From contig CAVPJU010000001.1 of assembly GCA_963705505.1 (NCBI GenBank), positions 160,001-224,000 on the forward strand: a stretch of 64,000 nucleotides of DNA. Reading direction: 5' to 3'. The position numbers were made by a program, and so were the translations under genes. Shown in pieces: positions 21,332-31,540 of the stretch. Source of the stretch: an uncultured bacterium (GTDB lineage: Bacteria > Desulfobacterota_D > UBA1144 > Nemesobacterales > UBA2774). Each line of letters opens with the position of its first letter. The first letter of the stretch is position 1. The notes under the pieces were generated by a model that saw only the letters and a list, made by a program, of their open reading frames with translations, did not search any database and was not told the origin of the DNA.

Positions 21332-22106
21332 TTATGCGTTAAGAGCCTTTACAATCTTTCTCACGAGGAACCGGGGAGTGAATCTCAATAGAAAAGGTAT
21401 GATTTTCTGTTTAAATCCGGGGAGCACGATGACCTTCCCCTTCCTGAACCCCTCGTAGCCGGCTTTCACGACAGGGCTCTGCGTCCATGAGGCTGAGCTT
21501 GAATAAAAGCGAGTCGTCGAGCTCCGATTTCGATCCGAACTCCGTTCTCACGGGGCCCGGAGCGAGGCACGTGATTTTTATGTCCGGGTTGTTAATTTCT
21601 TCCGAAAGCGCCTCCGTAAACGATAGGACGTACGCTTTTGTGGCGTAATAGACGGCGAGGTTGGGTCCGGGCTGGAACCCCGCGAGGGAGCCGACGTTGA
21701 GTATCCCGCCGCGTCCCCTTTCGATGATGCCCGGCAGAAAAAGTCTCGTTAAATGGGTGAGCGCAACTACGTTCACCTGAATCATGTCGATCTGCGTGTC
21801 CGCGTCGATCTCGGCTACGGCACCGCGCGTGCCGAAGCCCGCGTTATTTACCACCACGTCGATTTGTATATTTTCTTTCTGAAGCGTATCGAATATTTCT
21901 TTCGGGGCATTCTTTTCCGACAGGTCCTTGGGCAGAATGAAGACATCCACGCCGAATTCGGATTTAAGCTCGTCCGCCAGCGCTCTGAGCCTGTCTTCCC
22001 TCCGGGCGACAAGCACGAGGTTAGAATCGTCTGCAGCAAAGAGCCTCGCAAGCTCAAGGCCGATCCCCGAAGACGCCCCTGTTATAAGCACTGTCTCGTC
22101 TGCCAT
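21332..22106 (-). CDS. SDR-family oxidoreductase (DltE-like), apparent +1 frameshift at ~21475
   Basis: TGASSGIG, NNAG and YYATK motifs; removing one base of GGG at 21474-21476 restores a typical C-terminus PVVKAGYEGFRKGKVIVLPG...KALNA*. Confidence 0.88.
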
Positions 22107-22246
22107 TTTCACACCCCTTTTATTTAGTAGCGTATTATTGTTTTACACTTGCTCATTTGCCGTGTCAATCTGCAATTGGTCGGTGTGAACGGATATTTCC
22201 TGCGGTCGACGGGATGTCGATTCATGCCTGCTTAAACTCCCGGCGA

Positions 22247-23110: not shown

Positions 23111-25544
23111 ATGACAATGCCGTCTCAAATACTGCCTGTCAACATCGAAGACGAGATGAAGGAGTCTTATCTCAGTTATTCGATGAGTGTAATCATCGGG
23201 CGCGCTCTCCCGGACGTAAGGGATGGCCTAAAGCCCGTGCACAGGCGGATCCTCTACGGGATGGAGGAGGCCGGGAATCAGTGGAACAGGCCGTATAAGA
23301 AATCGGCGAGGATAGTCGGAGACGTGATGGGTAAATACCACCCCCACGGCGACGCCGCTATCTACGACGCGCTCGTCAGGATGGCGCAGGATTTCTCGAT
23401 GCGCTATACACTCGTCGACGGTCAGGGTAATTTCGGCTCGATCGACGGCGACCCGCCTGCGGCGATGAGGTACACGGAGGTCAGGCTCGACAGGATAGCG
23501 AGTGAGATGCTCGCCGATCTTGAAAAAGAGACCGTGGATTTCGTACCCAATTATGACGGCGGCGAGAAGGAGCCGCTCGTGCTCCCGGCGAAGATACCGA
23601 ACCTGCTCTTAAACGGCTCATCGGGTATCGCCGTCGGGATGTCGACCAACATCCCCCCTCATAACCTGAGCGAGCTTATAGACGCTATAATCGCGCAGGC
23701 CGGGAATTCCGATATTACGCTCGATGAGCTGATGAAACACCTTCCGGGGCCCGATTTCCCGACGGGCGGATTCATTACGGGCAGGAGCCCGATAAGGGAG
23801 GCTTACGAGACTGGCAGGGGAATTATAAAGATAAGGGCAAAGGCCAGAATTGAGAGGCAGAAGAAGGGGGATAAGGAAATCATAATCGTGAGCGAGATAC
23901 CTTACCAGGTCAACAAGGTAAAGCTCATAGAGCGCATAGCCGAGCTCGTTAAGGACGAAAAGATAAAAGGCATTTCCGATATCAGAGACGAGTCCGACAG
24001 AGAGGGGATAAGAATAGTCATAGACATAAAACGCGGCGACAACGCCGACGTCGTACTGAACCAGCTCTACAAGCACACGCAGATGGACACCTCCTTCGGG
24101 ATTATAATGCTCGCCCTCGTCAGGAATCAGCCGCGTGTCCTTTCGCTCAAGGAAACAATAAGCCACTTCATAGAGCACAGGAAAGAGGTCGTAACCAGGC
24201 GCACGCAGTATGAATTGGGGAAGGCCGAAGAGAGACTGCACATACTGGAAGGTCTCAAGATAGCGCTCGATCATCTGGACGAGGTCATCGCGCTCATTCG
24301 TAAGTCCTCAAGCCCTCCGGAAGCAAAAGACGGGTTGATGCTCAAGCTCGGACTCTCCGAGCAGCAGGCCCAGGCAATACTCGACATGAGGCTCCAGCGC
24401 CTGACCGCACTCGAGAGGGACAAGATAATCGAGGAAAGAAAGGAGCTCATTAACACGGTAAAGCGTTTGAAGGAGATACTCGAGCAGGAGCACCTCATAC
24501 TCGGCATAGTCACCGACGAGCTGAAAGAGATAAAAGAGAAGTACGGGGACGAGAGGAGGACGGAGATACTCGAGAGCTCGGAGGAAATATCCATAGAGGA
24601 CCTCATTGCCGATGAGGACATGGTCGTCACTACGACTCACGACGGTTATATAAAGACGACCCCGTTGAGCATCTACAGGAGTCAGAGGAGGGGCGGCAAG
24701 GGCAGGACCGGGATCACGACGAAAGAGCTCGACTTCGTTGAGACCCTCTTCATAGCGTCTAAGCACAACTACGTTTTATTTTTTACCAACCTCGGCAGGT
24801 GTTACTGGATAAAGGTCCACGAGATACCCGAAGCCGGTCCCACTGCAAGAGGGAAAGCGCTCGTCAACCTCCTGAGTCTCTCCGAAGGGGAAAAAGTCGC
24901 GGCGGTGCTCCCCGTGAGGGAATTCAAGGAAAGCCAGTATATCATCATGGCCACGAAAAACGGGATCGTGAAGAAAACGAAGCTGATGGCCTATTCCAAC
25001 CCCCGCGTGGGCGGGATCATAGCGCTTAATATCAGAGAGGACGACGAGCTTATTACAGGCCAGGCTTACGAGCGGCAGCGATGAGATACTCCTCACGTCT
25101 TATTTCGGCCAGGCCATAAGGTTCGAGGAAGACGATGTGAGGGATATGGGGAGGACGGCTACGGGCGTCATAGGCATCAGGCTCGACGAAGGCGATCAGG
25201 TCGTAAGCCTTGAAGTGATAGAGAACCCCGAGGCGCAGGTCCTTACCGTGACCGAAATGGGTTACGGGAAGAGGACGCTCGTCTCTGAATACAGGGTTAC
25301 GGGGCGCGGAGGGAAGGGTGTGATCACCATTAAGACCACCGGCAGGAACGGCAGGGTCGTGGGCGCATTTCAGGTTACGAACGATACACAGATCATGATA
25401 ATTACGACGCACGGCGGGAAGGTAATAAGGATGAACGCGTCCGAGATAAGCATATTCGGTCGAGGGACTCAGGGTGTGAGGCTTATCGGACTCGAGCCCG
25501 ATGAAAAAGTGGCCGCCGTGGCAAAAGTAGTGGAAAGGGATTAG
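23111..25544 (+). CDS. gyrA: DNA gyrase subunit A (apparent +1 frameshift at ~25058)
   Basis: [26 protein letters not shown] and GyrA-box QRRGGKG; deleting one base in ACAGGCC joins ORF 23111..25084 to 25137..25544 ([14 protein letters not shown]...[13 protein letters not shown]). Confidence 0.96.
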
Positions 25545-29042: not shown

Positions 29043-30226
29043 TCAGGCGAATACCTTGCCGAAAGGATCGACCCGTGTCTTATCCTCCTGCACCGGCGTG
29101 ACCAGCTTTTTATCCCTTCTCTCGATCCTTATGGTCCCGTCTTTTCTCCGCGTTGCTATAAACTGGGTTCCGCTCGTCTCACCGGATATCTTCTGTAGTA
29201 TGCGCGGATAGTTTTTGGAGCCGATGAAGATCGAGTGTATGCATACGCCTAATTTCTTCGCCCTCGTCCTTTCGTCCATTACGTCACAGTCGCCCGAAGT
29301 CGGGATCCCGTCCGTGATGAAGAGAATGTGCTTGTTCCTGAGGCCGCGCCCCCTGAACTCGGTGAGAGCGTCCTTAAGCGCGTCTTCGTAGTTAGTATTT
29401 CCCGAACATTCCGTTTTAGAGGCGAGCTCGAGCATCCACTGATAATCCCTTGTAAAGAATGCGGAGTTCCTTTTGTATTTGTACGAGCGGTGATTGAATT
29501 CCACGTAACCGACCCTCATCTTTTTCGATCTGGCGAGCTCGATAACTCCCCTCACGACCGATGAAGACCACTCGCTGTAAACTCCCATCATGGAGGTGCT
29601 GACGTCCCTCAGTATCGCGATCTCTCCCCCCATCATTTCTTTTTCGCGTTTATGGACTCTCGGGAGCGTCGGTGTGGTGTACTCCGACCAGAACATCGCC
29701 TCGTACGGATCGACGTCCTCGATCTCGTCAAAGTGGTTCATCCTCTTCCACTTCCTGGGCAGTCCGCCGGGATGGGGCGCCCTGAGGGCTATGCTCCTCT
29801 GGAAATTGCCCTCGAGGACCTTCATTATCACTTTTACGTTGTCGGCCGACTCGAGGTTCCTCTTGCCGCCGATCCAGTAATCTTCCTCGTCTCCCGGATC
29901 GGGGGATTTGCTTGCGAAGACCTTGGTCGTCTTGGGAGGCTGCTTGTCGTCCCTTCTGGTTCCGTCGTCCGAAAGCTGCCCTGTGGGGTCCGACGGAATG
30001 TTCATATCCTCGGGCGGAGCCATGGAGCTTTCCTTCTGTATGTTTTCCTTGAGTTCTTTTAAAGCCTGGAAGAAGGTTTTACGGGCTTCTGTGAGCTGCT
30101 CCTGGGACTCCTTTTTCCCCCGCTCATCAGGGGACTCCTGCTTTTGCTCGTCCGGGGCGTCCTTGTCAAATTCTGAGGACGGCTGTTCCTCTAGCTCGCT
30201 CCCACTGTCCCTGTCTTTTTTTTTTT
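29043..30226 (-). CDS. vWA (ViaA-like) domain preceded by acidic linker; likely -1-frame continuation of the upstream AAA+ gene
   Basis: MIDAS residues DVSTS, GNTNY and FITDG; E/D/Q/K-rich linker begins at the A11 run. Alternative independent ATG at 30023. Confidence 0.8.
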
Positions 30227-31153
30227 GGAGGTGAGGTCCTCGATTATCTGGTCGAGCTGCAGGTACACCTCTTCGGGGATTCGGAATGCAGTCATGTATT
30301 TCAGTGCGTTCAGGTCTTCGAGCGTACATACGTCCCTGCCGTGGAGCAGCGCGTACGCCCTCATGATCTTGAGCGACTTTACGAAAAATGTCCTGTCAGA
30401 GATAAGGGAGTTCGTTTCATTACATCCGTAATCTTCTATGAGTGTAGCTACGAAGTTTGCCAGCCCATCCTGGACTTCTAGGGGTATTTCGAGCTTGCCC
30501 AGCTTCTTGTAGTATTCGTCGAAAACTTCCCTGCTCACCCTCGGCGGCACCTGGTATTCGAGCGGTCTCTGCGTGTAGAGCTTAATGACTTCCCTCGCTT
30601 CGTCCCATTTCTTGCCGTAGGACAAGCCCTGTGCGTGTATCTGCAGGACGAACCTGTCGAGGTTAGCGGGGTCAAGCGGCTCGTTGTAGTATTCGTCGGC
30701 CGTCGGGTTGCTCGTAGCGATCGCGGTCAAGAGCGGGATGTCCTCGTCAAAGAACTTTCTTTCGTTGAGAATTCTCAAGAGTACGTTCAGTGATTCGCCC
30801 GGCGCCCTGGATATATCGTCCAGAAGGCATATCTCGGCGGTCAGTATTCCGCCCTTCACGACCTTCTGTTTAATTACTTCGCCGGTGTCTGTGACCTCTT
30901 TGGAAATAACCAGATCCCCGATAAGTTCCGAGAGTCTGGTGTCTCTGTGGAGCTGATAGAAGAAGAATTTCAGCTGCGCTGCGCCGGAAATGATTTCGGC
31001 AAGCATAGTCTTGGCAGTTCCGGGCGGTCCTTCCACATAAATGTGCTCCCTGGCTATGACACCCAGGAGGAGGGATATCTTTACCCCCTCGTGTCCTATA
31101 ACCAGTTTATCCATTTCTTCTTTCAAAGCTATAAATGGATTTTGTGATATCAT
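30191..31153 (-). CDS. MoxR-family (RavA-like) AAA+ ATPase
   Basis: EHIYVEGPPGTAKT (Walker A), LLDD (Walker B variant), LNVLLRILNER, ATSN and LDRF; ATG 31153 with GGAGG upstream. Confidence 0.9.
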   Translation of the reverse strand: MISQNPFIALKEEMDKLVIGHEGVKISLLLGVIAREHIYVEGPPGTAKTMLAEIISGAAQLKFFFYQLHRDTRLSELIGDLVISKEVTDTGEVIKQKVVKGGILTAEICLLDDISRAPGESLNVLLRILNERKFFDEDIPLLTAIATSNPTADEYYNEPLDPANLDRFVLQIHAQGLSYGKKWDEAREVIKLYTQRPLEYQVPPRVSREVFDEYYKKLGKLEIPLEVQDGLANFVATLIEDYGCNETNSLISDRTFFVKSLKIMRAYALLHGRDVCTLEDLNALKYMTAFRIPEEVYLQLDQIIEDLTSKKKKTGTVGAS

Positions 31154-31540
31154 TATTTGGTATTGCCTCCGTAAAATTCCTTGAGCTACTGGATAATTGT
31201 ACATAAGCGGGTTTTTTTTTGCAATAATTGCTCCTTACACGGGTCGGCGGGGTTTTTATAATGAAATAAGCCGGTTCCTGTTTTCGGGCATTTACCATAA
31301 TCCCTTAAATGTGATAAGGTGTTAGCCTTTATATACTCAACGCGGTAATAACTATGCAGCTATCAATAACGAATTTCCTTTCGGAGTTAAGCGGTTTCGT
31401 ATGGGGTATCCCTCTGATTGCGCTTCTTTTGGGTATGGCGGCGTTCCGTTCGATTCGTATATATAGCCTCGATTTCGGGATTTGCGGAGCTTCGTTTTAA
31501 TACTAAAAATATTGAGCTACAATATAGGCTTAAGCTGATT

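Follow-up and report, generated by a model that had tools for sequence, protein, structure and literature searches.

The window analysed here, the whole stretch of 64,000 nucleotides, carries on its minus strand a gene whose first part encodes a RavA-like MoxR AAA+ domain. At the end of this domain the frame runs into eleven A's (A11) and is soon closed by a stop codon, and the -1 frame continues towards a vWA domain. The junction reads GAG GAC CTC ACC TCC AAA AAA AAA AAG ACA GGG ACA GTG GGA GCG AGC TAG. A first-pass annotation of these letters had proposed a probable programmed -1 recoding event, and its particulars were recovered when we re-read the sequence: the A11 on the minus strand at 30216-30226 is followed by a 0-frame TAG seven sense codons on; the predicted products are 320 aa (unshifted, from ATG 31153) and 703 aa (with one extra A, ending at 29043); a GAGG ends 11 nt before the A11 and 16 nt before the A_AAA_AAG heptamer; and an AAGGA lies 7 nt before an internal ATG at 30023. 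The features are as follows.

31204: alternative in-frame ATG, upstream of ATG 31153, where the ortholog alignments begin
31166-31170: GGAGG upstream of the start of the short product
30191..31153, minus strand: 0-frame open reading frame of the short product, 320 aa, RavA-like MoxR AAA+ domain, C-terminus KKKKTGTVGAS
31007..31030, minus strand: Walker A, GPPGTAKT, exact in 67 of the 71 recoded rows
30815..30829, minus strand: Walker B, CLLDD, with Asp-Asp where RavA-like relatives have Asp-Glu
30238..30241, minus strand: SD-like GAGG, not conserved across families
30216..30226, minus strand: A11, putative slip site, where the folded AAA+ domain ends
30191..30193, minus strand: TAG closing the short product; its counterpart in in-frame orthologs is a +1-frame stop at NTA|R
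29043..30215, minus strand: -1 frame, 390 aa plus stop, with acidic linker, conserved helix and vWA domain
30039..30095, minus strand: predicted conserved helix, LTEARKTFFQALKELKENI, downstream of the 0-frame stop and upstream of ATG 30023
Upstream of Met 30023, -1 frame: predicted tryptic peptides DSGSELEEQPSSEFDK and TFFQALK
30021..30023, minus strand: internal ATG, possible additional start
29589..29606, minus strand: MIDAS DxSxS (DVSTSM)
29388-29405, minus strand: MIDAS-type Thr in SGNTNY
29307-29318, minus strand: MIDAS-type Asp in ITDG

The MoxR-type motifs (Walker A and B, arginine finger, lid) and the MIDAS pattern are given here under their usual names. The D, S, S, T and D columns of the MIDAS show no variation in alignment A2. 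A promoter and terminator scan gave matches at chance level only.

Upstream of the run, the protein matches the Pfam families bpMoxR, AAA_5, AAA_3 and AAA_lid_8, and the -1 frame matches VWA families. The model of a natural in-frame ortholog has an AAA+ fold that ends near residue 311 and a confidence that drops from residue 312, at the KKK, past which the model shows a linker of low confidence, a single helix and then the vWA domain. A MoxR-type AAA+ module is present, with Walker A and B, arginine-finger region and lid, and is linked to a vWA domain with an intact MIDAS; its nearest solved structures, by sequence and by fold, are the MoxR protein 2r44 and RavA. Judged by its sequence, the gene is a member of a RavA-like MoxR subfamily, for which ATPase activity, a hexamer and client remodelling are predicted, and the vWA domain is predicted to be the client-gripping part. 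The earlier label of a MoxR/RavA-ViaA-type chaperone holds for the pairing of a MoxR-type AAA+ domain with a vWA domain, but with RavA itself there is resemblance only: the RavA model NF010054 gives 64 bits against a cut-off of 681 and a separate downstream ViaA gene is missing, so that membership of RavA-ViaA was rejected. The Walker B motif is LLDD throughout the family, with more degenerate motifs in some fused paralogs of two-gene loci. A complex prediction with two AAA+ copies and the vWA part scored 0.00. Gene neighbours are guaB upstream and convergent mltG/proB in the Dadabacteria-like loci and unrelated genes in other clades, and this neighbourhood, which differs between clades, gave no clue to the client. 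No close relative was found on plasmids, where the best listed identity is 30% over part of the AAA+ domain. Fused AAA-vWA homologs that lack the KKK are found both in other bacteria and among proteins that look eukaryotic by their N-termini, from which their origin is inferred; P0047-P0074 and others bear N-terminal extensions resembling organelle targeting peptides, and some shorter AAA-only entries may be fragments.

The AAA+ gene has one match each in 117 of the 120 genomes of this Dadabacteria-like phylum (threshold 1e-40; three genomes without a match), genomes of about 1 Mb included. Three of the 117 were left out of the classification: G005 and G116, whose contigs stop before the junction, and G084, which has an A9 and a broken long frame. 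When the orthologs were aligned for the run and the frame break, all 114 classifiable genomes proved to have A9-A12 at the boundary between AAA+ domain and linker (A9 in 14, A10 in 68, A11 in 31 and A12 in one), and neither these nor the readable G084 have a run shorter than nine. The vWA half is encoded in the -1 frame in 94 of the 114 genomes; 17 have it in frame, and three in the +1 frame. The 94 support the proposed -1 recoding, but the direction is not universal, the short form of an in-frame ortholog calling for a shift the other way. All 17 of these retain A9-A12; in-frame fusions with mixed AAA and AAG codons, which the first-pass annotation had named as evidence against its own reading, were not found. 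Outside the run, AAA makes up 51% of the lysine codons, as counted over the first 57 orthologs, and a second run of at least nine A's does not occur in 355,760 nt of ortholog genes.

The state of the run is characteristic of each family: A11 with the vWA half in -1 in 27 of the 31 genomes of f1, the source family, A10 with -1 in all 36 of f8 and in 17 of the 18 of f9. Metagenomes showed the same pattern in the 60 of 80 loci that could be classified, of which 20 belong to clades further away (49-61% identity); the others have no run (16), no junction (two) or a run but a cut locus (two). Both short frames terminate within 28 codons in 174 of 174 classified loci. On a tree of 84 of the 114 rows, with f8g14 reduced to five, the in-frame state requires five changes, four of them forced by well-supported branches; two of the five are one-base differences in single genomes and may be assembly errors. 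These changes indicate that either frame state is workable, in keeping with slippage that can go both ways. Close f7-like relatives (L064, L200 and L224 versus L115, L117 and L118) differ in frame state through changes of one base inside the run or immediately behind it.

Relatives that lack the run provide a different view of the two products. Among the 16 run-less metagenome loci, 13 have two genes in tandem, first AAA-vWA and then an AAA-only paralog, and in the eight pairs compared the two share 43-50% identity; the remaining three are cut, two of them with a vWA gene upstream on the cut contig. Since these relatives carry AAA-vWA and AAA-only genes side by side, both products appear to be needed. 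The codons after the run point the same way. In the distant in-frame clade this codon is NTA (Val, Leu or Ile) in 17 of 17 rows, against a background of 42 in 1323, and creates a +1-frame stop; in f7 the corresponding figures are 13 of 13 rows against a background of 0.33, the rows in both cases being kin whose counts are not independent. In most groups, the third-frame stop was no closer than under synonymous shuffling, with median P values of 0.4-0.9 and, for the distant in-frame clade, of 0.17; selection on a third class of mRNA is therefore unsupported, which speaks against a simple three-class mRNA picture. Taken from the sequences, the short and the long product both look selected, and that the site is programmed and yields two products is, in our estimate, very probable.

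Other explanations of the frame break must be weighed against this reading. The simplest would be a homopolymer under-call, the truth being A12 and one fused open reading frame. Other genes of this assembly do seem to contain frame errors, gyrA looking split, and an in-frame A12 was read in two relatives, L028 and L191. However, a contig from the public run X1 covers 29319-30636, the run included, with nine substitutions and no gaps, although it is the only spanning piece among the 32 listed and a link between X1 and the source sample is possible. Moreover, A11 with the same frame state recurs in all eight same-genus genomes with a readable junction (the contig of the ninth, G005, ends too early), the same break at A11 occurs in the 27 own-family genomes and in 13 metagenome contigs, and other families are broken at A9-A10. 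The orthologs contradict the A12 reading, to which we give practically no weight; the A11 frame break is confirmed as real and is no assembly error. Alternatively, an AAA+ ATPase and a vWA protein could be encoded by two separate genes, the second beginning at ATG 30023, and the A-run would then serve another role. A Met is indeed retained at this column in 86 of the 114 orthologs, the AAGGA precedes it in the source genome, and in f8 an ATG, GTG or TTG comes earlier in 29 of the 36 genomes. Yet the Met is absent from f5 (2/2) and f9 (18/18), the in-frame fusions keep the run, and a helix between the 0-frame stop and the Met, in the -1 frame, is common to split and fused orthologs. Before this helix, 52 of 91 assessable genomes have no ATG, GTG or TTG in the -1 frame; the source window has no start between run and helix, its sole earlier -1-frame start sitting inside the AAA+ gene. 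The 52 codons upstream of the Met are free of stops in the -1 frame in 78 of 78 genomes tested and are under purifying selection: between stop and Met, dN/dS is 0.05 in 36 f8 genomes and 0.11 in 15 f9 genomes, with a pN of 0.16 against a saturated pS of 0.76 in 27 f1 genomes, and the other frames of the segment give values above 1. Because selection maintains the -1 frame before ATG 30023, a separate start there cannot explain the frame break, and the two-gene arrangement, which the first-pass annotation had itself raised, is most improbable. It may hold as an addition, a vWA-only product from Met 30023 being possible. We also consider it very unlikely that the run is a phase-variation switch, by which replication slippage would make the cells of a population differ in the protein they produce. 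Frame states vary among relatives and L018, L028, L064, L104 and L191 differ from their kin by one A, but length and frame are nearly fixed within f1, f8 and f9, and two-gene relatives encode both products in every cell.

Some features of the assembly deserve mention in their own right. The A11 is the sole A/T run of at least 11 in the 2.88 Mb genome, which also has one A10 and 17 A9. The single other A-run of at least ten, at G000:C8:149082-149091, is immediately 5' of an ATG, and an A9 on the minus strand at 31212-31220 lies in the leader of the AAA+ gene, where one X1 contig has one A fewer. AAA AAA AAA accounts for four of 181 KKK triplets in long open reading frames of the source genome. 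A gene that we take to be gyrA-like from its translation (window 23111-25544) is apparently split into open reading frames of 657 and 135 aa, and a presumably SDR-like gene (21411-22112) has an odd end; both are likely assembly frame errors.

If the site yields two products, either the RNA polymerase or the ribosome could produce them, and a pure A-run does not by itself separate the two. Published work reports that bacterial RNA polymerase slips efficiently from nine A's (PMC5009743), that the A11 of tssM1 gives mRNAs with 10-15 A's (PMC4256274), and that ribosomes slide robustly on A11 in vitro and slightly on A9-A10 (PMC4363877); the frameshift of frameshifted chlD (fs-chlD) is described as ribosomal (PMC9227772). 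The first-pass annotation had seen a dnaX/IS-type signal. Its elements, A_AAA_AAG and GAGG, are present in the source species, but in the family it is the run length that is conserved instead. The heptamer ends the run in 45 of the 94 genomes of the -1 type, among them the source genome and f9, and is missing in 49 (one unreadable), whose runs hold an in-frame A_AAA_AAA. SD-like pairing exceeds the 28% of background windows in f1 (17/28) and f8 (29/36); it is confined to f1, f5, f7 and f8, being common in f1, f7 and f8, and is nearly absent from f2, f6, f9 and the distant clades. No conserved 3' RNA structure was found when pseudoknot-free folding was compared with shuffles: across 54 loci the median z was 0.0, with 11 loci reaching -2 or lower, and the source gave 0.3. 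A hairpin in the nascent RNA 5' of the run was not conserved either, seven of the 54 loci having a z of -2 or less. As neither the heptamer nor the SD-like site nor a 3' hairpin is conserved, slippage by RNA polymerase is favoured over dnaX-type frameshifting. The same two products could nevertheless be ribosomal, through -1 shifting on A_AAA_AAG or A_AAA_AAA or through sliding on AAA codons, with +1 shifting in in-frame orthologs. The in-frame heptamer here and in f9, the pairing above background in f1 and f8, the 0-frame stop a few codons after the run, the sliding on A11 and the fs-chlD precedent all fit this alternative. It has to contend, however, with the absent stimulator, with the 82 of 114 runs that are A9-A10, lengths at which there is little sliding in vitro, with a shortest run of nine where a heptamer takes seven nucleotides, and with the opposite direction that in-frame orthologs require. 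We regard a ribosomal route as rather unlikely, and lean modestly towards recoding with two products by transcriptional slippage. The public runs listed number 21, all contigs, with a single RNA run at 0.09 of words.

We propose that the two reading frames are one gene and that RNA polymerase likely slips on the conserved A-run with which the AAA+ domain closes. An mRNA of the same length as the DNA would give the 320-aa ATPase, and an mRNA with one extra A the 703-aa ATPase-linker-vWA protein; in the source species, -1 ribosomal shifting on A_AAA_AAG may contribute. Short and long subunits would then enter one hexameric ring, as the MoxR/vWA precedent and the two-gene relatives lead us to infer. 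The slip rate would set the number of tethered vWA adaptors per ring, for which the NorQ hexamer with its one NorD is a precedent, and the mixed ring would remodel a housekeeping client.

Several known systems resemble this one in part. Like the gene described here, fs-chlD is one gene with an AAA+ domain, an acidic linker, a vWA domain and an A-rich slip site after the AAA+ domain, and ESM Atlas features place a fused ortholog nearest ChlD-like clusters. The chlD gene makes small and medium subunits, with -1 and +1 cases (PMC3711429; PMC9227772), some lineages have adjacent chlI plus chlD instead, and reporter cassettes with A11, A9 and A7 gave 63, 40 and 10% shifting (PMC3711429). In contrast, the AAA+ domain here is not of the ChlI/ChlD type and matches neither PF01078 nor PF17863; TIGR02442 gives 28 bits (cut-off 779) versus about 300 for chlD-like genes of f6, from which the MoxR-type ATPase is separated by BLAST E values of 1.8 or worse and by clade; and a 3' stimulatory structure is unconserved here. 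Membership of fs-chlD is ruled out by the AAA+ type, the TIGR02442 score and the separate clade. A cobN/chlH gene was not found in the source genome (G000, 94% complete) or in 32 genomes of its family, and scored above cut-off in six of 61, all f6. This large subunit is usual, but not universal, with fs-chlD. Some fs-chlD genomes are likewise described as being without it (PMC9227772). As an aside, f6 genomes have beside cbiD a separate chlD/cobaltochelatase-like gene, split at A9-A10 in four of five (L237, L239, L240 and L241; L238 is in frame), and the vWA half falls in -1 in all three for which the frames are available; this gene is probably the known fs-chlD. Family f6, the sole cobN-bearing one, carries both chlD-like and MoxR-type slip genes.

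The realignment sites of Thermus thermophilus dnaX (A9) and Citrobacter rodentium tssM1 (A11) are likewise pure runs of at least nine A's (PMC5009743; PMC4256274), which yield short and long subunits of one machine and do not need ribosomal stimulators; for tssM1, both forms and their ratio matter (PMC4256274). In 114 of 114 genomes here, the run counts at least nine A's and stops lie close by in the frames other than the long one. The proteins, however, are unrelated, and the present site spans a phylum and other clades and has opposite frame states. RavA-ViaA, NorQ-NorD and CbbQ-CbbO also join a MoxR AAA+ protein to a MIDAS vWA partner, and a NorQ hexamer binds one NorD (PMC9976466). Their vWA protein is a separate gene, whereas here it is attached to the AAA+ gene by frame or fusion, and the Walker B is DD with none of RavA's further domains. 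Finally, A_AAA_AAG with an upstream GAGG in the source species recalls the -1 frameshifting of Escherichia coli dnaX and IS elements (PMC3711429), but heptamer, SD-like site and hairpin are unconserved across the family.

Recoding in the MoxR-vWA family was not described in the largely open-access literature searched, and the words MoxR, RavA and Willebrand are absent from two supplementary files of PMC3711429. The sequences suggest that the slip strategy is likely that of frameshifted chlD, in a different protein family. It is tempting to speculate further, and we do so tentatively, that a RavA-like MoxR branch evolved, independently of chlD, a polymerase-slippage dial for a mixed hexamer. 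This dial would set the number of tethered vWA arms and so make a midasin-like machine from one short gene; its polarity would have flipped several times, gene duplication would replace it in other bacteria, and the core function it serves would persist even in genomes of 1 Mb and among eukaryote-like relatives.

To our knowledge, few chromosomal recoding sites span a phylum. One practical consequence is that gene callers wrongly split or fuse this gene across the whole phylum. More broadly, the strategy of chlD would extend beyond chelatases. The family also offers a natural series, in which a shift would give the long form, a shift would give the short form, or two separate genes encode the products. 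This series lets one ask whether polymerase or ribosome reads out pure A-runs, and how the ratio of AAA+ motor to vWA adaptor is set.
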